Below are positions 17,075-57,516 of a stretch of DNA of 64,000 bases, one piece after another. The stretch covers positions 223,761 to 287,760 of the forward strand of contig CAVPAE010000007.1 of the NCBI GenBank assembly GCA_963701455.1, written 5' to 3'. The stretch is from an uncultured Gammaproteobacteria bacterium (lineage in GTDB: Bacteria; Pseudomonadota; Gammaproteobacteria; UBA9214). A program made the translations under genes and the position numbers. Position 1 is the first letter of the stretch, and each line of letters begins with the position of its first letter. Under the pieces are notes generated by a model that was given only the letters and a program-made list of their open reading frames with translations, was not told the origin of the DNA and ran no database searches.

Positions 17075-17156
17075 ACGACCTTTTTCCAGGGCCCGCCCCC
17101 CCTGGTCTATGCAGGAGCGGTCATGGGTACTGGCAGCGATACCGCAGTGTGCCGGG

Positions 17157-33000: not shown

Positions 33001-33808
33001 AGGTCCCCAGTACCTCGGCATGATCGACCTGGATCGCCGGCAGCCACGCCGTCGTCAGGTGGCAGGCCTCGCAGACCGTGCTGGTCTGGATGTGTGAGCG
33101 GCGCTTGCCCGTGGCAACGATGCCGTCATGGCAGCTCGAACAGGCACCAGTGATATTGGCATGGTCGAAACTCGCATTCGCCCAGGCGATGGTGGTATGG
33201 CAATCCTCGCAGGTATCGGCACTCGGAACGTGGTGATTCGACTTACCTGTGGCCGTAGCACCATCATGGCAACTTGAGCATGTAGCGGTAACATTACTGT
33301 GATCGAAGGTCGCAGTTGTCCAGGCAGTTGTGGTATGGCAGTCCTCGCAAGTATCGGCACTTGAGATATGATTGGTGGTCTTGCCGGTCGATGTTGATCC
33401 ATCATGACAAGTTGCGCAGGATCCAATAACTGCATCGTGACTCATGTTAGCCAGTGGTTTCCAGTACGCATCCGTATGACATTCTTCACAAACAAGGTTC
33501 GTCTGGATATGATCAGACGGCATCTTGTCTGCCGGCATCGAGCTGGCCTGGTTGTGACAAACCCCGCATTCAACCGGTGTTCCCTCAAATATTCCACGCA
33601 GGTGACAACTCGTACAGGGTGCATTTTTATGCGCGCCTTCAAGCGGGAATCCTGTAGAAAAATGATCAAACCCGGCATTGGTTCCGAGCGCCATCACACC
33701 ATGTGACAGCAAGAACAGGAAACAGACAAACAGGAACATAACAGTCGCAGGCCGGCGGATTTCCCTCGACCCGGCCATTGACATGGTGACTTGTTGTTTA
33801 GGCTTCAT
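30071..33808 (-). CDS. giant c-type cytochrome with about 50 heme-binding motifs (49 CxxCH + 1 CX3CH)
   Basis: Signal peptide ...FLFLLSHGVMA. My hand count gives 49 CxxCH plus CSGSCH near the C-terminus. About nine tandem 93-aa tetraheme modules, with one extra His per heme (FDHS, THIQ, VDHA, NHIA). Start taken at ATG 33808 (MKPKQQ); ORF ATG 33847 is an alternative. Confidence 0.85.
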   Translation of the reverse strand: MKPKQQVTMSMAGSREIRRPATVMFLFVCFLFLLSHGVMALGTNAGFDHFSTGFPLEGAHKNAPCTSCHLRGIFEGTPVECGVCHNQASSMPADKMPSDHIQTNLVCEECHTDAYWKPLANMSHDAVIGSCATCHDGSTSTGKTTNHISSADTCEDCHTTTAWTTATFDHSNVTATCSSCHDGATATGKSNHHVPSADTCEDCHTTIAWANASFDHANITGACSSCHDGIVATGKRRSHIQTSTVCEACHLTTAWLPAIQVDHAEVLGTCVSCHDGATAIGKSTNHIPSAATCEDCHSTTAWLPATFDHSNVTGNCASCHDGTAATGKNSTHIQTTTICEACHLTTAWLPAIQVDHAEVLGTCVSCHDGATAIGKSANHIASNNTCDDCHSTSAWLPATFDHSTVSGNCASCHDGTAATGKNPTHIQTTTICEACHQTTAWLPAIQVDHAEVLGTCVSCHDGATAIGKSTNHIPSAATCEDCHSTTAWLPATFDHSTVSGNCASCHDGTTATGKNSTHIQTTALCEDCHGTSSWLPVTRVDHADVLGTCFSCHDGSTAPGKTANHIASNNTCDDCHSTSAWLPATFDHSTVSGNCASCHDGATATGKNPTHIQTTALCEDCHGTSSWLPVTRVDHADVLGTCFSCHDGSTAPGKTANHIASNNTCDDCHSTSAWLPATFDHSTVSGNCASCHDGTTATGKNSTHIQTTALCEDCHGTSSWIPVTRVDHADVLGTCFSCHDGSTAPGKSVNHIASNNTCDDCHSTSAWLPATFDHSTVSGNCASCHDGATATGKNPTHIQTTALCEDCHGTSSWLPVIRVDHADVLGTCFSCHDGSTAPGKSVNHIASNNTCDDCHSTSAWLPATFDHSTVSGNCASCHDGATATGKNPTHIQTTALCEDCHGTSSWLPVTRVDHADVLGTCFSCHDGSTAPGKTANHIASNNTCDDCHSTSAWLPATFDHSTVSGNCASCHDGTTATGKNSTHIQTTALCDDCHSTSAWLPVTRVDHADVLGTCFSCHDGSTAPGKSVNHIASNNTCDDCHSTSAWLPAVFDHANVTPGTCTTCHNGVTSTGKPSGHVITSAQCDECHSTIAWLPASFNHDQVTGSCSNCHNGTTATGKPGGHFVTSLQCDACHTTSYWVPLDFQHTSASYPGDHRSNLLCTACHQANSEVVNWSAPAYVPDCAACHANDFKQSAHKKYENPDTTYSVSELRDCSGSCHMYTDSSMTTIKDRRPGPEHRTTSSDF
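30500..33050. repeat. tandem array of about nine 279-bp units (93-aa tetraheme modules) inside the 50-heme cytochrome gene, several copies near-identical at DNA level
   Basis: Identical antisense ORF peptides recur at 31260, 31539 and 31818 (279-bp spacing). 30965 and 32081 share peptide text 1116 bp (4 x 279) apart. This is coding, not a CRISPR array. Confidence 0.85.
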
Positions 33809-42233: not shown

Positions 42234-42917
42234 TCAAAGTAAAGAAGGATCTCTCCGGGGATCGGTCTGTCTTGTCAATGCCTGGTATTCACGCACCAGG
42301 TCACCGGCACTCGCAAAACCCTCCATGCGAACCCAGCCTGTTTGCGGTGCAGCATGCATGAATGTCAACGGTATGTGATTCATCTTGTCGCGCCGGTATG
42401 CATCAAAAGCTTTCAGCACCGCCACGATGTCTTCACGATCCCCGGTCAGAAACGTCCAGCCTGTGCTGGCCTGGAAACGCTGCGCATATTCCCGAAGTTT
42501 TGCCGGAGTATCATGCTCAGGATCGATGGTAACTGAGATCATTCGAACATTATCCGCTTCAGGACCAAGGGCCTTCCGGGTCTGGGTAAAGCTGGCACTC
42601 AGGACCGGACAGATAGTTGTGCACGTGGTAAATATAAAATTCAGCATCACCGGCTCATTACCCTCCAGCATGTCGTGCAGGGAAACCTTCCTGCCGTCCT
42701 GATCGGTCAGTACGACATCGGGCACCTGGTATTCCTGTTCCTTGCGGACATAGCCCTTTTGCTGCAGCATCTGCCTGTGCTGCGAATGATCAACTCCATG
42801 CTGGTGCATATGGTGGGCAGCATCTCCGTCATCCAGGGCATGACCGGACGATGCCATGCCGAACGTAACCAGCAGGCCCATCATCCTGCCCGCAAACCTT
42901 ATTTTGTTATTCAGCAT
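42234..42917 (-). CDS. SCO1/SenC-family thioredoxin-like copper chaperone
   Basis: Membrane anchor, His-rich stretch (HHMHQHGVDHSQH), CxxxCP motif (FTTCTTICP), DPEHDT motif. Start at MLNNKIRF (42917). Confidence 0.8.
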   Translation of the reverse strand: MLNNKIRFAGRMMGLLVTFGMASSGHALDDGDAAHHMHQHGVDHSQHRQMLQQKGYVRKEQEYQVPDVVLTDQDGRKVSLHDMLEGNEPVMLNFIFTTCTTICPVLSASFTQTRKALGPEADNVRMISVTIDPEHDTPAKLREYAQRFQASTGWTFLTGDREDIVAVLKAFDAYRRDKMNHIPLTFMHAAPQTGWVRMEGFASAGDLVREYQALTRQTDPRRDPSLL

Positions 42918-42985
42918 GTCGTATTCTCCTTTTGTAATAACGTCCCTGCTTGTTGATATTCCCCGCGGCAGAGCCACAGCCGCTT

Positions 42986-44707
42986 CTAGTTGACGACCCA
43001 GTCACTCACTTTTATCAGCTCCGGATTTTCATCACCGCTGAGTTGCACGATATAACAACCTTTTGATGCATAGCGCTGACCAGGGCCAAAACTCAGCCGG
43101 GGAAACACGGCAATTGCTGCATCCTGATCTGTCATCATGTCGAAAGATTCCAGGAAATAGTCCCGGTAGAACTCGCCACGCATATGTTTTATGGCGTCCG
43201 GCAACATCCAGCCAAGAAAATACATCCTCGACTGGATTGCCAGATTGGTAGCCGGAATACCCCGCACCTTGAGCCATTGCTGCAGCGCCATCTGCCTGTA
43301 TTTATTTTCTTCGGGAAGGCTTTCCGGATAAGTCAGATAGAGAATGTTGCGCATCCCGGCGGGAACAAGATCCAGCCTCCCTTCCAGCAGGCTCGCAGAG
43401 GCAAACAGCATGGCGTCCCTCTCCTGATTCACAACCTGGCTACGCAGAGCTTCGGTGAGATCTTCCGCAGCAAGCCACAGCAGCACCACTGGCGCAGCTT
43501 GTTCATCCTCTCCTCGCCACCATGTCGCCGGCAGGGCACCGTTATCTTCGGGCTGCCGGAACTCCGGGACACCTCCTCCATATTCAGCCCAGGCATCCTG
43601 GAACCCTCGCGCAAGCATCTCCCCCTCGCTCCCCGGCCGGTACACCTGAATGACCCGGGTATCCGGCCCGACCTTCCCGGATGCCTGCAGAAACTTGGCC
43701 GCGGTTTCTCCCTCCTGGTAGAGCCCCCTGGAGAAATACAAGGTATACCAGTCGGATTTTGAAACTACCGGCTGATCAGTCACCGGGAAGATATTGGGTA
43801 TTTCATTGTCCTCGCAGAAGTCATGAATTGGCGCCCATCTGCCGGAACCAATCCCGCCAAGCAGGGCAAACACAGGTCGCAACCGGTAATAGGATTCAAG
43901 CTGCTCGCGCCAGGTTTCAGGCGGGCCGGTCAACTCCCACACATCGAGTGCGAGCTTGCGATAGGAACCGTACTGTTCGGTCTTGTAGAAAGGGCCCTGA
44001 CTGGCCCGGCGCAGATGAGGCCGGGTCTGGGTATTGCGCGCATCGATGTGCGCCTGCAGCACCGAAAGCATGGCATCACGATCAGTAGGGGACACACCAT
44101 CGGTCACCACGGTTGCAAAGCGCAGCGTCTCCCCGTCGAGCCCCGGAGCGTTGTTGACGGAAAGGTTTTTCAGGTAATGGATGAGGATCTCCATATCCCC
44201 CTCCTCCAGATCATAACGGGGCATTGCCTGGCTCAGCACCCTACCGTCCGCAGCCACACCGGTGCGCATAGCCCTGGCCAGGGTTTCTGCCGTATAGGGC
44301 GGACGGGCATCAACAGCCCGATTCTGGGACGGCAGCGACCAGCGCTCCGCAGCGCCCGGCCCGTGACCTTCGGCGGCAGGACTCCAGGCACCGGTACGCC
44401 GTCTCGGGACAAACAATTCCTTGCCATTGATCGGCCAGGTGACGATCGAACCCTCCACCGAGCCCAGTCCGCTGCGCTGGTGGCAGTTAATACAGGTAAA
44501 CATACGTCCATCCACGAATATATCCCCTGCGATGAGGGCCTGTACCGGTTCCCCGTCGGAGAGAATTCCTTCCCGGTAGAGACGCTCTCCCAACTGTAAG
44601 GTCGCATCCTCCTGAAGGCCCGCAGCCACAGCTGGACCCGGAACAAACGCGGTCCCTCCAACTACGCCGAGGAACAATAAACACCGGGTTATGTACCGTG
44701 GCATCAT
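42986..44707 (-). CDS. fusion of mono-heme cytochrome c domain (CINCH) with a type-I periplasmic-binding-protein (LivK-like) domain
   Basis: Signal peptide. A single CxxCH with a downstream Met-rich cytochrome c fold region. The C-terminal ~350 aa has the PBP-like alternating alpha/beta pattern. Confidence 0.65.
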   Translation of the reverse strand: MMPRYITRCLLFLGVVGGTAFVPGPAVAAGLQEDATLQLGERLYREGILSDGEPVQALIAGDIFVDGRMFTCINCHQRSGLGSVEGSIVTWPINGKELFVPRRRTGAWSPAAEGHGPGAAERWSLPSQNRAVDARPPYTAETLARAMRTGVAADGRVLSQAMPRYDLEEGDMEILIHYLKNLSVNNAPGLDGETLRFATVVTDGVSPTDRDAMLSVLQAHIDARNTQTRPHLRRASQGPFYKTEQYGSYRKLALDVWELTGPPETWREQLESYYRLRPVFALLGGIGSGRWAPIHDFCEDNEIPNIFPVTDQPVVSKSDWYTLYFSRGLYQEGETAAKFLQASGKVGPDTRVIQVYRPGSEGEMLARGFQDAWAEYGGGVPEFRQPEDNGALPATWWRGEDEQAAPVVLLWLAAEDLTEALRSQVVNQERDAMLFASASLLEGRLDLVPAGMRNILYLTYPESLPEENKYRQMALQQWLKVRGIPATNLAIQSRMYFLGWMLPDAIKHMRGEFYRDYFLESFDMMTDQDAAIAVFPRLSFGPGQRYASKGCYIVQLSGDENPELIKVSDWVVN

Positions 44708-44742
44708 TAATCGCCTGAGCAGTTACCTGTATTCTAGGAGTC

Positions 44743-44908
44743 TCTGAACAAGTCCCGACTCGTCATTCCGGCGCATGCCGGACAAAAGCGCAAGGCGCGT
44801 TGAACGCCCGGAGGGCGGCCCGCAGGGTGAGCGAAGCGAAGCATCCTGGAAATCAACAAGCTGGACCCCGGCTTTCGCCGGGGTGACGACTTATTCAGGA
44901 TTTCCTTG
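44743..44908 (+). repeat. ~167-bp interspersed repeat family C, full copy
   Basis: About 90% identical to 46618-46784. Contains the hairpins cattccggcgcatgccgg and ccccggctttcgccgggg. Confidence 0.85.
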
Positions 44909-44919
44909 ATTCATTATCG

Positions 44920-46596
44920 CTAGCGACACGCCCGGTTCTTGCGGCAGCCTGAATCAAGACAATCGACAAGCCCGTCACCGTCGTTGTCGAGACTGTCAGA
45001 GCATGTGCCGCCCTTGCCTTCCACACCACCGCCAGTGCCACCCCCACCGGTGTCACCGCCTCCGTCACCTCCGGGGACCGGGCAGGACTTACCTTTCAGT
45101 CTGTCCTTACCGTCGCAGTCCTGGTCGATGCCGTCCCGCTTGATATCGCAGGCATCGGGGTTGATAGCGGCGTTGCTGTCATCACAGTCCGGTAACGTTC
45201 CGCAGTTTAACTCGGCATAGAAATTATCACTGTCGTTATCCGTACATGGGGGGGGCGGCGGATTGCTCAGCAGAGCGGATGCCGCGACCACGTCGACCAG
45301 TCCGAAACCGGAGTCGTTATCCGCACCGGCCTGGCCGATGTCCATGGCTGAATCCTGCAGGGATTGTTCGAGTTCGGCCACGCTGACACCGGGAAAGGCA
45401 CCGCGCAGCAGTGCCAGCGCGCCCGCGACATGCGGCGCGGCGGCTGAAGTGCCGCTCACGGACACATAGGAATCCGGGAACAGTCCACCGGAGGTCAGGT
45501 CCGCTGTCCTGACGTTCACACCGGGCGCGACCACTTCCGGATACAGGGTCCCGCTACAGGCCGATGGTCCGCGCCCGCTGGTCGAGGCGATGTTCAGCGC
45601 AGCGTCTACGGCGCCAACCGCGAAACCATCTGGATTATTGGCCGGGCTTTCACTGGATGACCCTGACGGCCCCTTGTTACCGGCGGAAAATGCCACGGCA
45701 ATACCGGCAGCCTTGAGTACCTGAATATCTGTCTCGAATTCCAGGTAACACTGATCCAGCAGTTGCGGGAATCCCCAGGAATTATTGACCACGTGCGGCG
45801 CATCATCACTCGCCGGGTTGCCGTCGGGATCCAGCAGCCATTGGAACCCCTGGTGAATGCCGCTCAGCGAGGCTGTCCCGCTGTCGTCAAAGATCTTCAC
45901 CGCGATCCACTGCGCGCCGGGCGCCACGCCGATTGCCGTACCCCCGGCATCTCCACCAACCGCCAGTCCCATGACCTGGGTTCCATGACCATTCCTGTCA
46001 TGGGGTGAGGCATGCTCGCCATTGGGATCGAACCAGCTGTTGTTACCGCCACGCCAGCGAGGAGCCAGGTCCGGATGGTTCACATCAACCCCGGTGTCCA
46101 TACCCGCCACAACCATACCGGTTCCGGTGTAGCCCAGCCCCCAGAACTCCGGTGCACGTATTGCATCGAGATTCCACTCCGATGTCGTGGCGGTCGCCGC
46201 TGCCGGCGCCGGAGCCTGGACACTGGCATCAAGCGTAATACTGTCCACCCCCGGAAGTCCGAGTAACGGCTGAATGACATCCGCCCTGGCCGTCACAGCA
46301 AGGGCATTGATCGACCATAACTGAATGAGCCGTTTTGCCCCGTTCCCCTGCAGGAAGGCGATGGCTGGTCCCTGGCTGGCATTCGCCGTATTCCGCAAGG
46401 CCTGGATCAGCGCTGCCAGTTCGACACCCCTGCCCTGCCCCTTCCCTGGGAATGCCTCCAGATCCACACGTTCGGAAAATCTGACAATGAATGCCACATC
46501 TTTCCCGTCCTGGATGGCTTGTTGCACTTCCGCTGTCATGGTGGCGGCCTGCACTCCTGGCCCCCATGCGGAAACGCAGACCATGCCAAACAGCAG
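44920..46596 (-). CDS. subtilisin-like serine protease (S8) with C-terminal Cys/Asp-rich DxDxDG module
   Basis: Catalytic triad contexts: VAGMDTGVD (Asp), HGTQVMG (His), GTSAAAPHVAGA (Ser). The C-terminus has ...DIKRDGIDQDCDGKD..., a Gly-rich run and further Cys. The start is uncertain: the ORF 5' end (MRRNDGSGLVQ) is encoded by repeat C, so GTG about 46596 or ATG 46575 are more likely. Confidence 0.8.
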   Translation of the reverse strand: MLFGMVCVSAWGPGVQAATMTAEVQQAIQDGKDVAFIVRFSERVDLEAFPGKGQGRGVELAALIQALRNTANASQGPAIAFLQGNGAKRLIQLWSINALAVTARADVIQPLLGLPGVDSITLDASVQAPAPAAATATTSEWNLDAIRAPEFWGLGYTGTGMVVAGMDTGVDVNHPDLAPRWRGGNNSWFDPNGEHASPHDRNGHGTQVMGLAVGGDAGGTAIGVAPGAQWIAVKIFDDSGTASLSGIHQGFQWLLDPDGNPASDDAPHVVNNSWGFPQLLDQCYLEFETDIQVLKAAGIAVAFSAGNKGPSGSSSESPANNPDGFAVGAVDAALNIASTSGRGPSACSGTLYPEVVAPGVNVRTADLTSGGLFPDSYVSVSGTSAAAPHVAGALALLRGAFPGVSVAELEQSLQDSAMDIGQAGADNDSGFGLVDVVAASALLSNPPPPPCTDNDSDNFYAELNCGTLPDCDDSNAAINPDACDIKRDGIDQDCDGKDRLKGKSCPVPGGDGGGDTGGGGTGGGVEGKGGTCSDSLDNDGDGLVDCLDSGCRKNRACR

Positions 46597-46617
46597 CAGA
46601 ATCACCTTGAGGAGAAA

Positions 46618-46784
46618 CTGAACAAGTCCTGATCCGTCATTCCGGCGCATGCCGGACAAAAGTGCATGGCGCGTTGAACGCCCGGAGGGCGGCCCGCAGG
46701 GCGAGCGAAGCGAGTCATCCAGGGAAATCAACAAGCTGGACCCCGGCCTTCGCCGGGGTGACGACTTATTCAGGGTTTCCTTGA
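46618..46784 (+). repeat. ~167-bp interspersed repeat family C, full copy
   Basis: Direct repeat of 44743-44908. The two copies flank the protease gene. Confidence 0.85.
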
Positions 46785-46804
46785 GCTTCAGGCTTTTCAT
46801 GGCA

Positions 46805-47308
46805 TCACTCCACAACGATGTGCTCTTGCCTGAAGTCACCGATCACCAGGGTGACCTGATCTCCAGCCTTGACGGCACGGCCGGGATTGGCAAAGAACAT
46901 AAAATAGTTCCGGTCCACCTTGGCAAACTTCGGTGCCTGGCGCAGCGGCCCGATCTTGGCCGAGACCGGCACCTGCAGCTTGTGGCCGTTTTTTTCCACG
47001 ATCAGCTGCGGTTTAATCTTGCGGTCCATGATGGCAGCGGCCTTTTCCGGGTCCAGCATCCGGAACCGGAAATCCAGCATGTAATCAGCCGCGGTCCGGC
47101 GGATCCCGATGACACGTATCCCCCAGGGATCTCCGGGGTCTGCCTGTTCCTGCTCAGCAACGTTCGGCACTGCGACACTTGTTGCAAAGACCAGCTGTCC
47201 TGGCATAAACATGAACGCAAGCCCCAGCACCACCAGCAGGGCTACCGCGATTTGTACGGTATGGACGCATACCCCCAAGGTGATCCGCCTGGTCTGAGTC
47301 TGTTGCAT
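46805..47308 (-). CDS. membrane-anchored periplasmic hypothetical protein (167 aa)
   Basis: A single TM helix (IAVALLVVLGLAFMF) then a soluble domain. Lies between the MCO-like triad and the protease. Confidence 0.45.
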   Translation of the reverse strand: MQQTQTRRITLGVCVHTVQIAVALLVVLGLAFMFMPGQLVFATSVAVPNVAEQEQADPGDPWGIRVIGIRRTAADYMLDFRFRMLDPEKAAAIMDRKIKPQLIVEKNGHKLQVPVSAKIGPLRQAPKFAKVDRNYFMFFANPGRAVKAGDQVTLVIGDFRQEHIVVE

Positions 47309-47420
47309 GGTTTTATTCCCCTTCAGTCGTGATCAAACAATAGTCCGATCTCTCTACCAGTTCGTCAGTCATTGCAAGCAGTGGCGGGTACCTCCCCCAC
47401 TGGAGAGGTACCCGGAGCAC

Positions 47421-49244
47421 TTATTTCAGGATATCCACCCGGACGGTAGCCTCATTCGAGGTCGCGTCGAGATCATCCATGACGGTGTAGCCGAGCGCAT
47501 CCGAGCCGCGCTTGCCGGCGGTCGGCGTGTAGGTGATTGTGCCGTTACCGTTGTTCACCGCAGCGCCCTTGCGCGGGTTGCTGGTGATGATCACGGTATT
47601 GGCGACAACCGTACCGTCGTCGGTGTCATTGGCGACCACATTGATGGTCACGGAGTTGGTGCTGGCACCGGTATTACGCATCACCGTGGCGTAGTCGTCG
47701 TTGGCTACCGGAGACTGATTACCTGGCGCCGCATTGACCGTGACTGTGACCGTCGCGGAGTCGACACCACCATTGCTATCAGAGATGTCATAGGTGAAGG
47801 TTTCGTCACCGGAGAATCCCGCCAGCGGGCTGTAGGTCACGGTATTGCCATCCGTCGTGGCCGTTCCACCATTATCCGTTGCACCTACCGCAGTTATCGT
47901 CAGCGCATCGCCATCCACGTCGGTATCGTTGGCCAGCACGTCGAGACTGTTGTTGATCGAATCCTGGGCTACGCCAAAGGGATCGTCGACTGCAACCGGA
48001 TCATCGTTGAGCGGCGTTACCGTTACGCTCACGGTCGCGGCATTGGAAATATTCCCTGCCGTATCACGAACCGTGTAGGTGAAACCGTCCGCCCCGCTGA
48101 AATCGGGACTCGGGGTATAGGACACGGTACCGTCGTTAATCGCAACAGCCTGACCGTTGACCGCCGGACTGGCGATCGCCACTGTTGCCAGATCAATCGG
48201 ATTCCCGACAGGCGTATCGTTTGCCAGGACGCTGATGCTGCTGCCTGTCGAATCCTCCGCCACGGACGACACATCATCGACCGCCGTTGGCCCGGGTACC
48301 GCCGCGGCCACCGACAGATTGGTGAGCATCCCGCTACGCAGACGCCGGTCATACACGGGGTAGGTACCATTGGCGGCCGGCGTGAAGATCGCATCCTTTG
48401 TCTTGCCAGCGGCCATCAACACCGTGTGCTGCACGCGCGGGAAGGGATAGACATTGCCGTCCTCTGCAACCAGGGTCATGTGCTGGCCCTGCAATACCAT
48501 GGCATGGTCTTCCAGGCCTGCATTGAGCAAGCGGACCAGTGTATTGCTGCCTGCTGTACCGGCAGGCAAAGGCGCATCACCGGGCACAAAGGGGGCGCCA
48601 TTGACCAGGAAATATTTCGGTGCATAGTTGATCGTGCTGGGATAGCTTGCTGTCCCGTAGGTGCCACCGGCCACGGCTGCGTGCAGGGCCGGATCGATCT
48701 CGCTGTACAACAGCGACACCTCGCTATCATAGGAAATACCCGCATAGGCCTCTCCGGTCTGCGCATCGTGCGTCACCGCGCCGTACAGGCCCATCTGCAC
48801 CTGCACCGCCGGGTGTGTACCACTCGAATACAGGAAGGTCCCCGGTTTGAGGTTGCTCCATGCATAGATCCCGGTGGCTGCAGGGAGCGTCTCGTGGGTA
48901 AACGAACGCACCCGCTGCCGGCCCTGGTCATCGGTAAAAAACACCGGTGTCATTGCCGCCTGCTGGCCGGAGATCACGATCGACACCGGACTGGCGAGTT
49001 CATTACGCAGGTTGACCGTGAGCGTAGTGTCACCTACCGGCACCGTCAGCTGCGGGCCCGGTACGGTTGGCGTGCATGGCACACCCGTGTCCAGCCCGTA
49101 GCCCCACATGGTTATCACTGTGCTATCCGGCATGGTCAGGGTCGTCGTGCCGGCGCAGAGATCGTAAGTCACCGCACCGGCCTGGCCGGCAGCCGTCAGC
49201 AGGGCGGTGAGTGCCACACCTTGTTTGATTGATCTTATGTTCAT
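47421..49244 (-). CDS. secreted cupredoxin/multicopper-oxidase-like protein with degenerate Cu sites + C-terminal tandem Ig-like (cadherin/VCBS-like) domains
   Basis: Signal peptide. N-terminal ~330 aa are paralogous to the 49266 and 50569 genes (MWGYG..PGP.L.V; LEDHAMVLQGQHMTLVAEDGN aligns with HPFHFHGNHVTLIGRDGR). There is no HCH motif. Three Ig-like repeats (VAEDSTGSSISVLANDT..., ...LDVLANDTDVDGDALTI...). The 641-aa antisense ORF is R/G/H-rich junk. Confidence 0.7.
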   Translation of the reverse strand: MNIRSIKQGVALTALLTAAGQAGAVTYDLCAGTTTLTMPDSTVITMWGYGLDTGVPCTPTVPGPQLTVPVGDTTLTVNLRNELASPVSIVISGQQAAMTPVFFTDDQGRQRVRSFTHETLPAATGIYAWSNLKPGTFLYSSGTHPAVQVQMGLYGAVTHDAQTGEAYAGISYDSEVSLLYSEIDPALHAAVAGGTYGTASYPSTINYAPKYFLVNGAPFVPGDAPLPAGTAGSNTLVRLLNAGLEDHAMVLQGQHMTLVAEDGNVYPFPRVQHTVLMAAGKTKDAIFTPAANGTYPVYDRRLRSGMLTNLSVAAAVPGPTAVDDVSSVAEDSTGSSISVLANDTPVGNPIDLATVAIASPAVNGQAVAINDGTVSYTPSPDFSGADGFTYTVRDTAGNISNAATVSVTVTPLNDDPVAVDDPFGVAQDSINNSLDVLANDTDVDGDALTITAVGATDNGGTATTDGNTVTYSPLAGFSGDETFTYDISDSNGGVDSATVTVTVNAAPGNQSPVANDDYATVMRNTGASTNSVTINVVANDTDDGTVVANTVIITSNPRKGAAVNNGNGTITYTPTAGKRGSDALGYTVMDDLDATSNEATVRVDILK

Positions 49245-49265
49245 GTCTATTCCCCCGCCCTGCGT

Positions 49266-50540
49266 TTATGGAATCGGAACACCGTTGGGCTCGACGATCA
49301 TCATGGTCATCATGCCGCCCGGAAAGATGTCGTTGTTGGCAAGTTCTTTCTCTGCATGGGAATGCCACATGAAGAACATGCCCCCGTCCAGGTTCAGACC
49401 GCCCTCGCCCGGCGGCAGGTCACCAAACTGACCCAGGAACGGGCTGCCGCGGTAGAAGCCACCAAAGGTCATGTCCTGGATCGCCGGCAGTACCACCGGT
49501 AACTTCTTGCCGTGATCCGGCGCGTATTCGTTGGGTTCCAGCGGGTCGCCGTTTTTGTGGCCGTAGATGTCCCAGCCGAGCTTGTAACCGGTCCAGCTCC
49601 ACAGGGCATCATAGGTCGAGCCCGGCACCGCCTGCAGGGTGAAGTCGACACGCGCCAGGTCAGGTCCCGCTCCGGGCGTGCTCTCCAGCATGCGACCGTC
49701 GCGACCGATGAGGGTGACGTGATTACCGTGGAAGTGGAAGGGATGCAAGTCCCGTCCGGCGCTGATCACCCGCGCCAGTACTGTCTCACCGACATGCGTC
49801 CGCGGCAGGATGTTGTAGGGCTGGTTCGGCAGCCACGGGGCATATGCATCCGCCATGGTATCCGGACCATTGCGGCCGTTGATGAACCACAGCACCGCCT
49901 TGTGTTCGCTGTTGTCGATGACATCGTACAGTTCCAGCGAGGCGTAGTAATGGACCATCGGGTCCATTTCGGTGAGCAGGAACAGGTATTCCTGGTCGAA
50001 CGCCGTGTCCGGATGATTGTAGGCCTGGTTAGCAGCAGCAGGCCGGACGATGATGGCGCCCAGCAGGCCCATCTCGACCTGCAACTCCGGGCGCGTGCCG
50101 CTGTTGTACAGGTAGGTTCCGGGATTACTGGCGGTAAAGGTGTAGGTCACCTTGTCCGCTAGCGCGGGCCCGGTACTCTCCTGGGTCAACAGTCCCGCTG
50201 AGCCGCCGGTTGCACTCACCCCCTCCTGACCGGGAAATACCAGCGACACCGGCATGTTCGGCACGCCGAGCGCATTGGTCAGGTTGATGGTAATGGTATC
50301 GCCCTGGTCGACGATCAGCGTCGGCCCGGGATACTGCATTTCGCCGTCATCCAGCGCGTAACCCCAGACCAGCAGGCTGTCACCGTCCGGCGTGGAGATA
50401 ATGGCCGGTTTTGCAGTGAAGTCGAAGTTCGTTCCGGTGACGCCGTCGATGGCCGCCTCGGTCCTGGCACCCGCCAGGGACATCAGCAGCAGGGCAAATC
50501 CCGCCAGCCAGTGTCCGGTTTGCAGTGTTTTCGTATTCAT
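49266..50540 (-). CDS. multicopper-oxidase-like protein lacking the type-1 Cu cysteine (HSH instead of HCH)
   Basis: Signal peptide. HPFHFHGNH fits the HxxHxH motif. FMWHSHAE occupies the position of the HCH motif with Ser replacing Cys. Confidence 0.7.
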   Translation of the reverse strand: MNTKTLQTGHWLAGFALLLMSLAGARTEAAIDGVTGTNFDFTAKPAIISTPDGDSLLVWGYALDDGEMQYPGPTLIVDQGDTITINLTNALGVPNMPVSLVFPGQEGVSATGGSAGLLTQESTGPALADKVTYTFTASNPGTYLYNSGTRPELQVEMGLLGAIIVRPAAANQAYNHPDTAFDQEYLFLLTEMDPMVHYYASLELYDVIDNSEHKAVLWFINGRNGPDTMADAYAPWLPNQPYNILPRTHVGETVLARVISAGRDLHPFHFHGNHVTLIGRDGRMLESTPGAGPDLARVDFTLQAVPGSTYDALWSWTGYKLGWDIYGHKNGDPLEPNEYAPDHGKKLPVVLPAIQDMTFGGFYRGSPFLGQFGDLPPGEGGLNLDGGMFFMWHSHAEKELANNDIFPGGMMTMMIVEPNGVPIP

Positions 50541-50568
50541 GGACTTATCCCCCGGTTCCGGTCTGTTG

Positions 50569-51828
50569 TCATAACCCGATGTGGATTTCGGTCATCATGC
50601 CGCCGAAATCCTCGTCGTTGTTGCTGAGATAATTCAGGTTGGTGGTGTAGAGGAAGTAGGTCCCCGGCGCCACGCCCGCTGTATCGATAATTGCGTCAAC
50701 CGACTCGCCCCCGCCCAGCGTCACCGAAGCGGTGTCGTAGTACAGTTCCTCGCCGCTGGCCACGCCGCCGCCTTTCAGGATGCGCGCGCCGGTGCCCACC
50801 ACCTTCATGGTCAGCCCCAGGGTAGTCAGGGTGTAGTAGCGGGTGACGTTCAGGTTGGAGATGCGCAGCAGGATCTTTTGCCCGGCAGTGGCCTCAATCC
50901 GTGAACTGACCGGCTGGGAGGTGCTGAGCGGGCTAACAGCAGTTGGGAAATCCCCAGCTCTGACAGGATTGGCGCCACTCTCCAGTGTGTGCGGAAAGTC
51001 GAAGGTACTGGCATCGGCGGTATCAGGGTAGCCGCGGCCGTTCAGCATGGCATAGCGGTCGGTCATGTTGGCAAACGGCAGCGGCTGGGTATTCATGCTG
51101 GCATCGTGAAAGTCCGGATCGAAGGAACCGATCTGGATGGGAAACTCGACGTCATAGCCGGTTGAACCGTCGGTGTCGTTGTACACAAACTTGTTATAGC
51201 CACCAATGGTGGTCCCGTTCTGTGCCGGCCTGACATAGAGGTTGCCCAGCATGCCCATCTGCATGTGCTCGGTAGCCTCGACATGACAGTGATACATGTA
51301 GGTGCCGGGCTCCGCGAGATTGTAGTAATAGGTCACGCTGGCCCCCATGTTGATGGAGATGGTGGCATCCGGCACCCCGTCGAAGATATCCGAGGCGTTC
51401 GGGAAACCGTGGAAATGCACGGTATGCGGATCGGCCAGATCCGGACGCATCAACATGCCGTAGTTGGTCAGCGTCAGGTAGAATTCCTTGCCCTCGTCCA
51501 GCACGATGGTCGGCGCTGGAAAGTTTGCTGCCAGAATGCTCGCATCGAGTGCCTGGTCATGGGGCACACCCGTCAGGTCGACGAAGCTGAACATGTACTG
51601 CAGCCTGCGGATGTCATCGGACATGCTGACAAAACCGTCCCCGGCGCCCAGGTGCATGCACCTCACATTCGCGGTTGACTGTCCCTTGTGCATCGCCTTG
51701 TCAACTACGGCATCGCCATCGGTATCACCGGGACACTGCACCAGGGCCGCGGCACCTGCCAGGCCCGGCAATCCCGTCAACAGCAACAGGAGTGCAGCGG
51801 CAAGTGGATTTACGTGGTTGTCTTTCAT
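50569..51828 (-). CDS. multicopper oxidase with intact type-1 copper motif
   Basis: RBS GGAGGA lies 7 nt before ATG 51828. Signal peptide MKDNHVNPLAAALLLLLTGLPGLAGAAA. HTVHFHG, then YMYHCHVEATEHMQMGM (HCHxxxxHxxxxM). C-terminal cupredoxin domain ends FGGMMTEIHIG. Confidence 0.75.
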   Translation of the reverse strand: MKDNHVNPLAAALLLLLTGLPGLAGAAALVQCPGDTDGDAVVDKAMHKGQSTANVRCMHLGAGDGFVSMSDDIRRLQYMFSFVDLTGVPHDQALDASILAANFPAPTIVLDEGKEFYLTLTNYGMLMRPDLADPHTVHFHGFPNASDIFDGVPDATISINMGASVTYYYNLAEPGTYMYHCHVEATEHMQMGMLGNLYVRPAQNGTTIGGYNKFVYNDTDGSTGYDVEFPIQIGSFDPDFHDASMNTQPLPFANMTDRYAMLNGRGYPDTADASTFDFPHTLESGANPVRAGDFPTAVSPLSTSQPVSSRIEATAGQKILLRISNLNVTRYYTLTTLGLTMKVVGTGARILKGGGVASGEELYYDTASVTLGGGESVDAIIDTAGVAPGTYFLYTTNLNYLSNNDEDFGGMMTEIHIGL

Positions 51829-51889
51829 TGGTCTATCCTCCTGTGTGCCCCGGGGTGGAGGCATCCCACCCCGGAACGCTAGCCCTTGG

Positions 51890-54800
51890 TTACGGCGTGA
51901 ACTCATCAGCCCCGATGTCGTCACGGTTCCGCCAGACCGTCGTCGGCCGGGTATCGCCGTCAATATCAACAGCCGGTGCATTATCATTGTTGTTACCTGC
52001 GCCCCTGTCGATTGCGGCCAGCCTTGAGACTGACGTATCGACAAGGTGGTAATCACCCGTCGGTGCCAGCGGGCCAAAGCGGACCTGGATGAAGTTGCCA
52101 CCCTCGTCGAAGGCCGGTTGCGTGGCGATGGTGGTGGTGAGTTCCACCTGCTGGATGGTCTCGCCGTTGTCGGTATTGACGTATGGCAGAACAAACAGGT
52201 CCAGTGGATCGGTGATACCGCTGCCGTCACGGTTGTTGTTGTGGTAACCAGTAGTATCAGTCAGCAGGTTGAAACGCGGGTCCAGCGAACCGGTCGCACC
52301 GAGCACTGCCAGGTCCTGGTAGGGCGTGGCGGCACTGTTCAGACCGTACACCGCAGGTTCCACCGTCGTATCGATCTCGAAGAAGAACGACCGGTTGCGC
52401 CAGACAATGTTGTTCAGCAGCAACGGCTTGGAGAACACACCGTATTGATTTTGCCGGTTATTGGGTATTTCGCCGTTCAGTGCCGAGCTGTGCGCACGCG
52501 AGACGATACCCGCCGGTTGCGCCGTAGACTGGTTCGGACTGCCGGGTGCAAATGCCTCACCCGCCGTGGCCGTGGAGTCATTGTGGGCAACGGTGTTGTT
52601 GACGATGTTCACTCTCACCGTATCCTGCAGGGCGATACCGCCGGCAGCCATGCCCGCCATGTTGTTGACGACGATGTTGTTGACAATATCCAGCGGATAC
52701 CAGCCGTTTGGATTGTTTGATGCTTGCACATCTGTGCCGTTGACAGCCGCGGCCGCGATACCGCCACCGTCACCGGCACCGGCCTGGTTACCCTGGATGA
52801 CGTTGGACAGGATCTGTACCGGACCGGACCCCGGGCTCAGTGCGCCGGGATTCAGGGCCGCAGCGCCGCCGATGAAGATGCCACCGCCGTTGCGTGCCTG
52901 CCCCTGGTTAAAGGACTGGTTGAACATGATGGTGTTGTTGGCGATGAGACCCGAGAGCACCGTATTTCCGGATCCAAAGCCGCCACTGCGGCCATAGTGG
53001 CCGATGCCGCCGCCGTCACCCTGGGTGAAGTTACCGCAGATGGTGTTGTCCGTTACCTGGTAACTGTCACTGCCGTGATACAGGCTGACACCGCCACCGG
53101 CACCATTGCCGCTGCCGTTCCCGGCAATCAGATTATGGTGGATACGGATGTTGTCATTGAAGCCGTCCTGGTAGACCAGATTGGCGCCCTGTTCAAGGGC
53201 CAGGAACGGATGACCGACGCGGATACCGCCGCCGTAGATGCCATGATTGCCGAAGATACGGTTATTAGACATTTCCAGGTTTTCGGCATAGCCGTTGACC
53301 ACGATACCGCCGGCACTGTCCGACCCGGTAATGCTGAGGCCGTCGATACGTGACACATTTTTACCGAAAGTGTCGTCCTGCGTACTCCCTGTACCATCCA
53401 GGCCCAGCACGATGATGCCGGGGCCTTCCTCGGTGAACAGGACGTCCGGTTCACCGGCCACGCCGAACCCGACCTCCTGGGCCGGCAGCAGGTGATACTT
53501 GCCCTGGGTGTGCAATGTCTCGACATCCTGGCGCCAGGCGGTGATTTTCTCGCCCGGCGACTTGATGGCGCTGATGGTGGTGGAAGCGCCCGAGCCCTGC
53601 AGGCGCACCGGCTTGTGCATGATGACCAGTTCCTCGTACTCGCCCGGCGGCACCAGTATCAGGTCACCGGGACTGGCCACATCGATGGCAGCCTGGATGG
53701 AGCCGCCCGGGGCCACCTGTATTGCACCGCCACCCACCGTCACGGTGATACCCGCGACAGTCGACCGACCGTTGTCACCCCGGGTGATCTGCAACTGACC
53801 GGTGGTGGTACCGGCGGTCACCGTGCCGCTGATGGAACCGTTCGACCAGCTGACGTTCGTCAGTGGAACGCCGCTGATAGTGACGCTACCCGTCCCCTGG
53901 GAAGCGCCGAAGCCATAGTCGCGGCCGCCGGGGTCCTGGGCTGCCGTGATCGTGATTGACTGCGTGCCGTCGGCAACATACGGATTGTTGCCGTTGGGTG
54001 CCGGTGCGTCGACGTATGGTCCGCTCAGTGAGCCGACTACCGACCAGATTACCGGCGTACCATCCTGGTCCCGGCAGTCCAGCGGCTGCTGGTTCGGGCC
54101 CGTAAAGGCTGCGACGGGTACCACCGGTGTATCCAGGAAGGTGGTCACGCCCGGCATGTACTGGAAGGTGTAGCAGAACTGGCTGTACTGCGAGTTATAG
54201 TTCGGATCCGTGACGAAACCACCGGCACCATCGGGAATGGGGCCCGGATCATTCATGCAGGTGGTGACCATGTTCGGCGAAGTGCCACTGGCACTTGCAT
54301 TGCTGTTGGTAAACATGGAGGGCAATACCGCATTGAACGTGCCCCAGCGGTCGGAGTAGGTGCGCGCATACTCCCGCCCCTTCCAGTCGCGAATCGACAC
54401 CGGCAGGTAGGGCGGCGAGTACTTCTCGCCGAAGGTCGGTGAATTGGGGTCAAACTCGTTCGACAGATCGTCGAGAATGAACCCTGTTACCTTCGCCGCC
54501 ACCGGCACCTGGGTGAACATGAAGAAGTCGGCCGCCGCGTTCTTGCCATCGGTCAACAGGACCTGCTTGCGGTCGCACAACGGGGTATCGGTGCCGGCCA
54601 GGAATGGTGATTCTCCTGGAATCGGGAATAGCGAGAAATCATCGGGCACCAGGTGCAGGTCACCGACACAGACCGGTGGCAACAGTTCAGGCGCCGGCAC
54701 GAACTCATCACCGAAGTCCACGTTGCGGTCTTCTTCCTTGAGTGTCTGGTAGACCGGGTGCTCACCGGTAGCGACGATGTAGATGCCCTTGGGCAAGGAA

Positions 54801-57022
54801 TCCACCTCGGCAGCGCCCGAATCGACGCCACCCGGCACGTAGGAATCGAAGGCATAACCACCGTCGAACACCGCCGGGCGTACCTGGTTGTAGTTACGTA
54901 TGCCGTCGTAGCAATCCGTCGGTACCGAACCATTGACCATGAAAACGTCACCCTGGCAGCCGGTCGGGATGTTGTCGTCCCAGCTGTCAGTGGTGCTTAT
55001 CTGGATGGCATCACCGCCGTCGAAGCTGCCGTTTTCCGAATCGGCCAGCGGCGCACAACCGTTGAGCGGATCCAGCGCAGGGTAGTCGAAGTCCTCGGCG
55101 CCCGGGAAGTTGCCAAATGGATAGTTATCCACATCCGCCAGTGTCTGGCAGCCATCGCCGTTGAGGTCGTCAATCACGCCATCGCCACCGGGGGGAATAT
55201 TATCCTCGTACAGGACCACCTGGATGCGCGGTATACCCGGCTCCCACAACTCGGCGCCGGCATAGGCCGGATCGTCCTCGGCGCGGGTCACGGCATAAAA
55301 GACGATTCCCGAAATGCCGCCGTTCTCACCGATCACGTAGGGTTTCTTGCCCCACTGGATGACATTGGTCTGGCCGAGGAAGGCCTGTACGCCCTGGGTC
55401 AGCACCGGCCCGGTCTCGGTACGGTAGGAAGCGCCACCGTTCTCTGACTGGGGCTGGGGATTGAGCACGCCATCAAATGACCAGGGATCATTGGGGTCGA
55501 CCGGCCCGCCGTCATCCACGATGATGGTTGCACCGGTTGCCTTGTAGCGGGTAAAGCCGACTTCCGCGACCAGCCAACTGAAGAAGGGGAATACCTCGTC
55601 ATAGGGCGCGGCCCCGCCAAGGTCCGTGGGGAATCCCTGGTAGATGGTGCCATCACGCCAGCGCAGCGCGGTGCCCTCTTCGAACATCGGCGCCTCTCCG
55701 GCGTCCCAGAAGCCGTTTTCGTTCTGGTCGTTGAATACGTGTTGTTCGACACGGCCAAACCAGGCAAACACCGGCACATCCAGCAGGCTGCAGCTGCCAC
55801 CATTACACTGGCCGTTCAGAACGGTGACACCCTGGGAACCGAAGATGTAATCCAGATTCTTGTCCCAGATCGCCAGCTGGTAATTGCCATCGGGCACGCC
55901 GGAAATAGAGAACTTGCTGTCCTCGTCACAGGGGACCGCGATGACACCCTGGCCGATATTGACTGCCAGGTCGTTGAGACCAACCCAGCAGCCGGGTACG
56001 GGTGCCCCGGTATGAAAAGCAAAATCCGGCGGGCGCGAGTTATGGATACTGCGCACCTGGCCGGTGATAGTGACACCACCGCCGAGTGTGGCACCATTCT
56101 GGAGTCCTTCCCTGACGAAACCCATAAACACGTGCGGGCCTGGCGGGCCGAACTCGGTGAAGAACGGCGGTTCATTAGCCTTCACCCAGGCATCGATAAT
56201 CTTCTTGCCCTCGAGGGTGGTGGTCTGTGACCAGCTGGTCGGATCGCCATTTGCATCGGTGGTTGGTGGAACTGCCTGGATGCCATACTTGGCCGGGACG
56301 AGGTTCTTGATCAGGGCGATACCGTTCGCATCGGTCGTGACGGTGCCATCCCCCAGGCTGACAACATTGCCGGCATTGCCATAGGTGGTGCCGAGCGGGT
56401 TGCCGAAGGCATCCGTGGTGATCTGCTGGCCGGAGATACCGTAGCGACCACCGGCATCCTCGAGCAGGATATTGAATCCGCCCAGCCCGACTTCTTCCGG
56501 GGTATCCGGTGCACCGTTGATAGGCCAGTTATCCTCGAAGATGAAGATACGGATCTGCGCCGTGGGAACAGGATGCTCATTGACGCTGATCGGGACAATG
56601 ACCTGACCCGCCGCGATCTGCGCACCGCCCATGCTGAAGCCTGAATCGGGCAGTATGGACACATAGTAGCGCTTGTTGTCATCCAGGGCTGGCAGGGAGG
56701 AAGGATCACTGGAATGACCTTCCGCGACGACCGGCAGGTAGCTCTTGTGGAAGTTCACCGACAGGCAGTCAGCCTCAAAATCAGGCTGGCAGGTCTCCCC
56801 CGGCACGATGTCGTAGGTGACATCCTCTTCAATCAGCCAGCGATAAGCCGGAACAGGTACCGAGCCGCCATTGGCGTCAACGCCGGTTACATTCAGGACA
56901 GGCACTGCAGCCGCCACAGGCCAGGCAATCAGCACGCAGGTGAGCAACGCCACAAGACCTGAGTAGCGGCTGACAAGCAATTCCCCCCAACTCTTTTCCC
57001 AATGAATAGTGATTGCGTTCAT
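51890..57022 (-). CDS. giant (about 1700 aa) secreted/surface protein: N-terminal signal-anchor, SdrD-B/carboxypeptidase-regulatory-like region, C-terminal right-handed parallel beta-helix repeats
   Basis: TM/signal segment LVALLTCVLIAWPVAAA. The C-terminal ~500 aa have repeated beta-helix rungs (NNRIFGNHGIYGGGIRVGH; NLIAGNGSGNGAGGGVSLYHG; NTICGNFTQGDGGGIGHYG; NNTIMFNQSF; NVIQGNQAGAGDGGGIAA; NNIVVNNMAGMAAGGIALQD). The antisense ORFs are low-complexity. Confidence 0.7.
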   Translation of the reverse strand: MNAITIHWEKSWGELLVSRYSGLVALLTCVLIAWPVAAAVPVLNVTGVDANGGSVPVPAYRWLIEEDVTYDIVPGETCQPDFEADCLSVNFHKSYLPVVAEGHSSDPSSLPALDDNKRYYVSILPDSGFSMGGAQIAAGQVIVPISVNEHPVPTAQIRIFIFEDNWPINGAPDTPEEVGLGGFNILLEDAGGRYGISGQQITTDAFGNPLGTTYGNAGNVVSLGDGTVTTDANGIALIKNLVPAKYGIQAVPPTTDANGDPTSWSQTTTLEGKKIIDAWVKANEPPFFTEFGPPGPHVFMGFVREGLQNGATLGGGVTITGQVRSIHNSRPPDFAFHTGAPVPGCWVGLNDLAVNIGQGVIAVPCDEDSKFSISGVPDGNYQLAIWDKNLDYIFGSQGVTVLNGQCNGGSCSLLDVPVFAWFGRVEQHVFNDQNENGFWDAGEAPMFEEGTALRWRDGTIYQGFPTDLGGAAPYDEVFPFFSWLVAEVGFTRYKATGATIIVDDGGPVDPNDPWSFDGVLNPQPQSENGGASYRTETGPVLTQGVQAFLGQTNVIQWGKKPYVIGENGGISGIVFYAVTRAEDDPAYAGAELWEPGIPRIQVVLYEDNIPPGGDGVIDDLNGDGCQTLADVDNYPFGNFPGAEDFDYPALDPLNGCAPLADSENGSFDGGDAIQISTTDSWDDNIPTGCQGDVFMVNGSVPTDCYDGIRNYNQVRPAVFDGGYAFDSYVPGGVDSGAAEVDSLPKGIYIVATGEHPVYQTLKEEDRNVDFGDEFVPAPELLPPVCVGDLHLVPDDFSLFPIPGESPFLAGTDTPLCDRKQVLLTDGKNAAADFFMFTQVPVAAKVTGFILDDLSNEFDPNSPTFGEKYSPPYLPVSIRDWKGREYARTYSDRWGTFNAVLPSMFTNSNASASGTSPNMVTTCMNDPGPIPDGAGGFVTDPNYNSQYSQFCYTFQYMPGVTTFLDTPVVPVAAFTGPNQQPLDCRDQDGTPVIWSVVGSLSGPYVDAPAPNGNNPYVADGTQSITITAAQDPGGRDYGFGASQGTGSVTISGVPLTNVSWSNGSISGTVTAGTTTGQLQITRGDNGRSTVAGITVTVGGGAIQVAPGGSIQAAIDVASPGDLILVPPGEYEELVIMHKPVRLQGSGASTTISAIKSPGEKITAWRQDVETLHTQGKYHLLPAQEVGFGVAGEPDVLFTEEGPGIIVLGLDGTGSTQDDTFGKNVSRIDGLSITGSDSAGGIVVNGYAENLEMSNNRIFGNHGIYGGGIRVGHPFLALEQGANLVYQDGFNDNIRIHHNLIAGNGSGNGAGGGVSLYHGSDSYQVTDNTICGNFTQGDGGGIGHYGRSGGFGSGNTVLSGLIANNTIMFNQSFNQGQARNGGGIFIGGAAALNPGALSPGSGPVQILSNVIQGNQAGAGDGGGIAAAAVNGTDVQASNNPNGWYPLDIVNNIVVNNMAGMAAGGIALQDTVRVNIVNNTVAHNDSTATAGEAFAPGSPNQSTAQPAGIVSRAHSSALNGEIPNNRQNQYGVFSKPLLLNNIVWRNRSFFFEIDTTVEPAVYGLNSAATPYQDLAVLGATGSLDPRFNLLTDTTGYHNNNRDGSGITDPLDLFVLPYVNTDNGETIQQVELTTTIATQPAFDEGGNFIQVRFGPLAPTGDYHLVDTSVSRLAAIDRGAGNNNDNAPAVDIDGDTRPTTVWRNRDDIGADEFTP

Positions 57023-57516
57023 CAGCGTTCCCCCAATCTGTTTTTCGGTTTTTCTGGCTGGCCACCACACGGCGACGCTACAGATCCATATTCCCTACAC
57101 ATCAGTCAGTTACTGCACAGATTCCGCAACATTCGATCACTACAGGTACTGTGACAAAACCAACTACTCCGGCAGCACTACAACACTTGTGGGGTAACTG
57201 TAGGCGGATTGAGTCTCAAAGAGAGGTAGTTCAACACCGTATTTCACGGCACCAATGCACGATAAATCAGGTAGGGTATTCCGGTAGCTTCAGGCTACTG
57301 CACCGGGTTTCTGCGCCTGGAATTCAGCCCGGATAAATGGCACGGACCAACCCGGCAAGGGACAGAACAAGGGACGAGTAAACGCCATGCGCCTGGCCAC
57401 CGATAATCAGGGGGATATATTTGCAGGAATGGAACGACAAGCGTCGTTAATGAAAGCGCACTGCTACTAGAGGTAAAAGAAACAGCCCTGCCAGGCCGAA
57501 ACGGAACGATCCCGAA

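Follow-up and report, generated by a model that had tools for sequence, protein, structure and literature searches.

Two questions are raised by a stretch of 64,000 nucleotides (hereafter the window) from an uncultured gammaproteobacterium: how a gene for a subtilisin-like (S8) protease came to be bracketed by two direct copies of one short repeat, and where, given that one copy overlaps its 5′-part, this gene begins. The protease gene lies on the minus strand; the repeat copy termed A occupies the spacer behind its stop codon, and the copy termed B lies within its coding region. Our analysis makes it very probable that the repeat is a transposable element of the miniature inverted-repeat type (MITE) with IS5-like ends, derived from an insertion sequence of the IS5 group, that copies A and B are independent insertions, and that copy B is inserted in frame in the signal peptide of the protease.

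MAFFT alignment and repeat finding first located the copies at approximately 44736-44909 and 46610-46784; the refined boundaries, obtained from the family alignment and the target duplications, are 44737-44905 (169 bp) for copy A and 46611-46780 (170 bp) for copy B. The first-pass annotation had described two full direct copies with two GC hairpins each, and this description holds: both copies have the same orientation and are identical at 155 of 170 positions (91.2%). Within the window, a 40-nt probe from the right end of the repeat gave three matches and a 28-nt probe of the left hairpin gave two, with none expected according to 100 shuffles. The gene, its start region and the three repeat copies are the following:

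44920 to 46800, minus strand: gene of the S8 (subtilase) protease, which bears a MopE-type metal-binding motif at its C-terminus (defined by Pfam, open reading frame (ORF), orthologue N-termini and junction alignment)
46808 to 46811, minus strand: GGAG Shine-Dalgarno sequence, 7 nt upstream of the ATG at 46800
46648 to 46650, minus strand: internal ATG in the loop of hairpin 1 (MRRNDGSGLVQ...), the start chosen by the ORF caller of the first-pass annotation; a possible alternative start, with no Shine-Dalgarno sequence upstream
46611 to 46780, plus strand: MITE copy B, a 170-bp long form, located where the minus-strand protease gene encodes its signal peptide (defined by its boundaries and the alignment of filled and empty sites)
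46607 to 46610, no strand: left TTGA of the 4-bp target duplication of copy B
46781 to 46784, no strand: right TTGA of the same duplication
44737 to 44905, plus strand: MITE copy A, a long form shortened by a 1-nt deletion, in the spacer that separates the protease stop from the next gene
about 3420 to 3475, plus strand: truncated MITE copy, right end only (hairpin 2 and right terminal inverted repeat), containing the TGA stop of a PD40-repeat gene

Copy A starts 14 nt past the protease stop codon (44920-44922) and 29 nt ahead of the start of the next gene (44707). The third, partial copy reported earlier is real and consists of the right end only; it does not follow the stop codon of the PD40-repeat gene, as had been stated, but overlaps it. 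The last codons and the TGA stop (3427-3429) of that gene come from the truncated copy, by which its C-terminus may have been altered.

The decisive comparison for the protease is that with relatives which lack the element. For the homologue search, copy B and one TTGA were removed from the query in silico. The closest element-free homologues cover 100% of this query protein and carry a standard signal peptide of 27 residues; their N-termini read MKILKLKVVLLLYGMVCTFAWGPGVQA (P0002 from locus L008, 89% identical; start MKILKLKVVLLLYGMVC), MKSLKVKLVLLLYGML... (P0003) and MKSLKPKVILLLYAMV... (P0004). On the coding strand, the insertion lies exactly between ...CTGAAGC-TCAA and GGTGATT..., and the empty sites in loci L008 and L009 contain a single copy of the codons that correspond to the TTGA duplication on both sides of copy B. 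Element and duplication together add 170 + 4 = 174 nt, equal to 58 codons without a stop in the relevant frame. The insertion enters at codon 7/8, where it separates the n-region MKSLKLK from the hydrophobic core VILLLFGMVCVSAW; the gene is otherwise unaffected. The inserted peptide (ETLNK...VQFLLK) is hydrophilic and net-positive: it contains 10 K/R versus 4 D/E and lacks any hydrophobic stretch. Behind it, the h-region and the AxA-type cleavage motif VQA-A are preserved. Read from the ATG at 46800 through copy B, the protease comprises 626 aa, of which 58 are derived from the element.

The TGA stop of the upstream gene (46805-46807) lies 4 nt ahead of the ATG at 46800, and in the DNA alignment the GGAG, this TGA and the ATG are invariant in all four aligned loci. 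As the element-free orthologues agree with this invariant block, the ancestral start of the protease is the ATG at 46800, upstream of the repeat. Copy B lies inside the longest ORF of the protease. The first-pass annotation had correctly recognized that the N-terminus MRRNDGSGLVQ (ATG 46650) is encoded by the repeat, but its expectation of a true start further downstream is reversed by the orthologues. Translation most likely still begins at the coupled ATG at 46800 and would read through the element, giving a precursor MKSLKLKETLNK...; the internal ATG at 46650 could alternatively yield a signal peptide of normal length (35 residues).

The open frame through the element, which the gene caller also read through in the homologue P0001, could be taken to mean that the stretch encoded by the repeat is no insertion but a true domain conserved at the N-terminus of the protease. 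Only one of the 11 homologues read carries the stretch, however, while the closest element-free proteins have their 27-residue signal peptide in its place. The same DNA is intergenic at about 20 other loci, and a search of predicted proteins for the 58-aa element peptide returned just two short orphan ORFs. This interpretation is refuted by the empty sites, and we consider its probability to be practically nil.

P0001 (93% identical), encoded on an ENA contig (locus L007), provides a second filled allele. At the site of copy B it carries a 110-bp form, again in frame (114 nt with the duplication), which lacks an inner module of 60 nt; its arms are identical to those of copy B in the window, including substitutions unique to copy B. 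Locus L007 also carries copy A at the matching downstream position. Loci L008 and L009 are without either insertion, and their spacer after the protease measures 37 nt or less. The sites are thus polymorphic for presence and absence, both insertions being shared by the window and L007 and neither being found in L008 and L009. The 60-nt difference between the window and L007 arose in situ. The module of copy B in the window has its own substitutions and differs from that of copy A at 5 of 60 positions, and a recent gene conversion of copy B from copy A was rejected for this reason. We favour instead a precise loss of the module in the L007 lineage or a conversion by a short paralogue.

In both element-bearing genomes the protease ORF is intact, and the ratio of non-synonymous to synonymous substitution rates (dN/dS) between them is 0.10. 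The divergence between window positions 43059-48000 and L007 is sharply mosaic. Each MITE copy lies in a tract, hundreds of bases long, that diverges by 0-1%; these tracts alternate with others that diverge by 10-20%, in the body of the protease gene, at 43750-44050 and beyond 47850. One segment of the window resembles L008 more closely than L007. The pattern suggests that lineages have recombined or that the metagenome assembly is chimeric, and dN/dS therefore cannot date selection to the time after the insertion. A small hint of constraint is given by the intergenic copy A, which has a 1-nt deletion, in comparison with the intragenic copy B, the length of which is canonical in both genomes.

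The distribution of the repeat beyond the window was determined by searching its exact right-end 20-mer against one genome per species and the JGI metagenomes. Family members were found in metagenome-assembled genomes (MAGs) of Gammaproteobacteria, in Thiobacillus MAGs and on many contigs from sediment metagenomes. After removal of duplicates and of chance matches, among them the coding matches L004, L018/L027 and L021, about 20 distinct full-length loci were left. Five of them group at a length of 110 bp and eight at 170 bp. These two forms differ exactly by the 60-nt module, which was never seen outside the element in this data set; in other variants, the loop of hairpin 2 contains an additional insertion or the interior is of another kind. 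A 4-bp target duplication is perfect in 12 of 20 distinct full-length loci, copy B included, and matches at three of four positions in four more. Seven of the perfect duplications are TTAA; TTAG, TAAA and TCAA also occur, in addition to TTGA at copy B. A duplication of 5 bp (Tn3-like) or 7 bp, considered from copy B alone (CTCAAGG), was rejected, as the 20 loci consistently give 4 bp outside the GG...CC ends.

The proposal of a multicopy, MITE-like unit is borne out by these data: the repeat occurs at many loci outside the window and is missing from the coding sequence of most homologues, and it is thus neither confined to three sites nor part of a conserved coding sequence. Among the roughly 20 loci, the protease site alone is convincingly intragenic, and the other copies are intergenic. 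Further intragenic insertions were considered in L034 and L036 and rejected, the long ORFs spanning them having the appearance of antisense artefacts. In locus L036 (Ga0316198_10005901), 2 kb separate two members of the family (near 1944 and at 3890-4022); the module is shortened in one of them and missing from the other. Clustering of copies is thus not unique to the window.

The anatomy of the element is given here for copy B, with the corresponding module of copy A:

46611 to 46628, plus strand: left terminal inverted repeat (TIR) of copy B, GGAGAAACTGAACAAGTC, similar to the right inverted repeat (IRR) of IS5, followed by CCTGAT
46639 to 46656, plus strand: hairpin 1 of copy B, ATTCCGGC GCAT GCCGGA
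46657 to 46716, plus strand: 60-nt inner module of copy B, present in the 170-bp forms and absent from the 110-bp forms and from L007 at the orthologous site
46736 to 46760, plus strand: hairpin 2 of copy B, CTGGACCCCGGC CTTC GCCGGGGTG, inverted partner of hairpin 1
46763 to 46780, plus strand: right TIR of copy B, GACTTATTCAGGGTTTCC (reverse complement GGAAACCCTGAATAAGTC), similar to the left inverted repeat (IRL) of IS5
44783 to 44842, plus strand: 60-nt inner module of copy A

Each full copy starts with GGAG...CTGAACAAGTC and ends with GACTTATTCAGG(G/A)TTTCC, which together form an 18-nt TIR; the repeats GGAGNNNCTGAACAAGTC / GGAAACCCTGAATAAGTC are present at the two ends of every full copy and pair with each other in the consensus fold. 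Hairpin 1 (ATTCCGGC-GCAT-GCCGGA) and hairpin 2 (GGACCCCGGC-CTTC-GCCGGGGT) are inverted versions of a single unit of about 27 nt, GTCA-stem-loop-stem-TCCAG, the stems of which differ by TT/AA in one and CC/GG in the other. In the 110-bp form, hairpin 1 is a complete 20-bp palindrome, ATTCCGGCGCATGCCGGAAT. The hairpin-rich 60-nt module is located inside the stem of this hairpin, between GCCGGA and ATCCAG, and single strands of the copies fold with the left half onto the right half. With canonical forms of 110 and 170 bp, the element is too small for a transposase gene. That no DDE (DDE_Tnp_1-type) transposase was found in the window or the related loci accords with its non-autonomous nature.

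About 30 nt of the module (GCCCGCAGGGCGAGCGAAGCGAGTCATCC; 46689-46716 and 44815-44842) are nearly identical to part of a repeat next to the RtT small RNA. The matching sequence belongs to a repeated unit downstream of E. coli tyrT (L042), and a similar repeat is found in Serratia (L041). An Rfam scan gave no match to the RtT family, and the likeness may reflect convergence on a GCGAAGC hairpin.

The inverted doublet of GC-rich imperfect palindromes in the core, composed of two hairpin units of ~27 nt (GTCATTCCGGCGCATGCCGGAATCCAG and, reverse-complemented, CTGGACCCCGGCCTTCGCCGGGGTGAC) whose stems show the compensatory TT/AA versus CC/GG differences, is a feature shared with repetitive extragenic palindromes (REP) and their paired form, the REPINs. 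It could accordingly be argued that the repeat is an element of this type, spread by a REP-associated tyrosine transposase (RAYT; Y1/HuH), and that its IS5-like ends are incidental, the more so as bare doublets of the same unit type exist at window positions 26637-26716 and in a Sphingomonas plasmid. RAYT/REP systems, however, have neither 18-nt TIRs outside the hairpins nor the 4-bp duplications present here at most loci; the units start with GTCA and lack the GTAG/GTGG head; and the comparison of filled and empty sites reveals that the whole 170-bp unit including the TIRs was inserted. We regard a RAYT-driven origin as very improbable. The repeat had earlier been called REP-like or MITE-like, and it is the second of these terms that is retained here in view of the IS5-like TIRs and the 4-bp duplications.

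For the comparison with IS5, the ends of this insertion sequence were verified: a 302-nt left-end sequence matched loci annotated as "IS5-like element IS5 family transposase" with 100% identity, and a 1195-bp IS5 copy gave the IRL GGAAGGTGCGAATAAG and the IRR GGAAGGTGCGAACAAGTCCCTGAT. The MITE ends, which can be generalized for the family as GGA(A/G)NNNCTGAA(C/T)AAGTC, share with them the GGA tip, the block GAA(T/C)AAG(TCC) and the matching T/C difference between the two ends. In addition, the IRR and the left end of the MITE share a subterminal GAACAAGTCC(C)GAT, corresponding to GTCC(C)GAT. Compared with the terminal repeat of the IS5 group, GGAAGGTGCGAA(T/C)AAG, the copies in the window match at 10-12 of 17 positions and the variant L033 at 15 of 17, a resemblance rather than an identity. 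Including the subterminal IRR region, 19 of 27 positions match, in a comparison made with the ends of IS5 itself. The target of IS5 is 5′-YTAR-3′, with a 4-bp duplication (PMC5009759), and the dominant duplications of the family, TTAA, TTAG, CTAA and CTAG, fall in this set. On account of the IS5-like ends and the YTAR-type 4-bp duplication, the element is read as a MITE of IS5-group origin. A DDE transposase acting in trans would bind the 18-nt TIRs and mobilize the element, which would then insert at TTAA-like (YTAR) sites and duplicate 4 bp. The interior of the MITE differs from IS5 throughout, being unrelated to it and composed of hairpin modules.

Several points weigh against this reading, or against parts of it. 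The likeness to IS5 is partial, as positions 4-9 of the MITE ends differ, and the duplications TTGA (copy B), TCAA and TAAA are near-cognate sites outside the strict YTAR set. Copy A has the flanks TCTA / TTGA and thus no recognizable target duplication. A tblastn search with the IS5 transposase detected no IS5-family transposase within the 64 kb of the window or the 229 kb of related loci, and exact-match scans of genomes and metagenomes for an autonomous element with matching ends gave only MITE copies and chance matches. Concerning the protease, a signal peptide of 85 residues would be unusually long, and export of the protein is putative; the case for its continued function based on dN/dS is weak. 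Two scans of viral-contig collections with TIR probes yielded one chance coding match and nothing else.

Within positions 14774-14897 of the window, an IS5-like left end (TTAA, then GGATGCTCTGAACAAGCCCCG) stands alone, and behind it come two GTAG-type palindromes in inverted arrangement (GTAGCCYGGATG...ATCCGGG). A matching right end was not found there. The arrangement suggests that the same IS5-like ends enclose a different hairpin cargo.

The bracketing of the protease gene by copies A and B could itself be functional, the pair representing a composite MITE-flanked unit that brought in the protease or a pair kept for its excision or duplication. The outer ends (left TIR of A and right TIR of B) are oriented towards each other as the two ends of a transposon should be, mobilization of intervening DNA by MITE pairs is documented for TIME composites (PMC4133298), and two copies 1.7 kb apart in a 64-kb window are somewhat closer than expected from random placement. 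On the other hand, the protease occupies the same synteny in relatives without either copy: in these, it lies between the same upstream gene of 167/168 aa and the same downstream gene of 578 aa. Copy B has its own TTGA/TTGA duplication, the outer flanks of the pair (TCTA versus TTGA) do not match, and one end of the presumed cargo would sever the signal peptide from the gene. Finally, copies from unrelated contigs are as similar to A or to B (89-93%) as these two are to each other (91%), in agreement with an independent insertion of both from a common source. Taken together, the duplication of copy B, the unlike outer flanks and the synteny in element-free relatives lead us to conclude that A and B are two independent insertions into a conserved cluster and not a composite transposon delivering the gene, an alternative that we consider extremely improbable. 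Excision or duplication of the gene via the direct repeats, raised in the first-pass annotation, is conceivable in principle, but no sign of it was seen in the data, and the neighbours are the same in the element-free relatives. The two copies would have landed separately in a copper-related gene cluster that already existed.

This cluster extends over positions 42234-57070 on the minus strand and comprises several multicopper-oxidase genes, genes for Big_9/cadherin-repeat proteins, the S8 protease with its MopE-type copper-binding motif, and genes for a 167-aa protein without Pfam match, a Peripla_BP_6-like protein and SCO1/SenC. Its gene order is the same in the related contigs L007 and L009. 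The composition suggests a copper-handling surface system.

A further proposal concerns the RNA level, where the copies could be kept as regulatory elements of the operon (terminator, stabilizer or RNase III site); this would be an added function and no rival to the origin described above. Folding of the strand in the sense of the protease transcript gives one long stem that carries two GC hairpins (-73 and -77 kcal/mol for the two copies, with z = -2.3 and -3.6), copy A is placed between two cistrons, and transcripts of comparable elements are processed, those of Correia elements being substrates of RNase III and those of ERIC of RNase E (PMC10969869). An intrinsic terminator, defined as a GC hairpin followed by a T-run, is nonetheless absent from both copies on either strand, and termination within copy B, which lies inside the reading frame, would abolish the protease; the terminator role suggested earlier is therefore not upheld. 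Rfam gave no match at gathering thresholds and, in E-value mode, only sub-threshold noise from the GC hairpins. Compensatory change was observed in 1 of 43 predicted pairs, in a test in which the probe fixed half of hairpin 2 and the family is too uniform and too young (89-93% identity). Retention for such a role appears unlikely.

Among known systems, the Correia elements of Neisseria (CREE/nemis) are similar in that they are short MITEs with TIRs and a long stem, located beside and occasionally inside genes. They likewise fall into two size classes that differ by an internal block. Their TIR sequence is unrelated, however, their hosts differ, and they duplicate TA, in contrast to the TTAA-like 4 bp of the family described here. 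With regard to this comparison, no promoter-like site was found in the element copies. Intragenic MITEs inserted in frame, which leave the host ORF intact, are known from Rickettsia palindromic elements (RPEs), ERIC, BOX and QMITE1 (PMC10969869). The fusion at the protease site resembles the RPEs in this respect, but an intragenic position is the rule for RPEs and the exception here (1 of about 20 loci), the sequences are unrelated, and the insertion affects a cleaved signal peptide instead of the mature protein. The neisserial dRS3 repeat is defined as ATTCCC(N8)GGGAAT (PMC3898611); hairpin 1 of the short form, a 20-bp ATTCCG(N8)CGGAAT, has the same format, and the mosaic, modular build recalls that of dRS3 and the Neisseria intergenic mosaic elements (NIMEs). 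The arms differ at one position, though, there are no dRS3/RS arrays, and the palindrome is part of a transposable unit bounded by TIRs. In summary, the element belongs to a known kind and does not represent a new one.

The window harbors several other repeats. The bare inverted doublet at 26637-26716 consists of hairpin units of the MITE-core type (GTCATTGCGGCGCAGGCCGCAATCCAG / CTGGATGCCGGCCTGCGCCGGCATGAC) and has a vestigial likeness to the MITE ends; it is adjoined at 26762-26828 by a palindrome with 33-nt arms, and the similar doublet of the Sphingomonas plasmid is found in L040. REP-like palindromes with a GTAG head (GTAGCCCGGATGGAGCGCAGCGGAATCCGGG) are located in intergenic regions at 6447-6483, 10717-10754 and 14862-14897. 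They are distinct from the MITE and a better candidate than the MITE for a RAYT-associated REP. Inverted copies (86%) of another repeat of about 95 nt, with inverted ends of its own (AGGTTGGGCTGA...TCAGCCCAACCT), are present at 5407-5501 and 16985-17079 and probably represent another family of MITEs or REPINs. Tandem repeats of 279 bp form long arrays at 30452-33420 and 58342-59757, within very large ORFs of the minus strand (1258 aa and 696 aa); they probably encode repeated Ig/cadherin-like domains.

Counted with the duplication, the two canonical sizes of the MITE (114 and 174 nt) are divisible by three, and stops are absent from two of the frames. The peptide encoded by the stop-free frame is positively charged and unstructured and has Met-Arg-Arg just ahead of its exit point, and it may lengthen a Sec signal peptide, or re-prime it, with no loss of the gene. 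That the element is built to tolerate coding insertions, or that the 60-nt module is precisely gained and lost in the hairpin stem by a dedicated mechanism and not by random deletion, has in our estimation only a small probability.

For annotation, the results mean that the start of the protease gene is to be corrected from the element-encoded ATG at 46650 to the ancestral one at 46800, and that the MITE family is a trap for gene callers in sediment Gammaproteobacteria and Thiobacillus, where it can be translated or cause starts to be misplaced. The locus also provides a clean natural example of a MITE inserted in frame in a secretion signal, with filled, empty and size-variant alleles through which the tolerance of a Sec signal peptide for N-terminal extension could be studied. 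In a wider context, hairpin doublets of a widespread type enclosed in IS5-like ends could illustrate one route by which palindromes become mobile via a DDE transposase.

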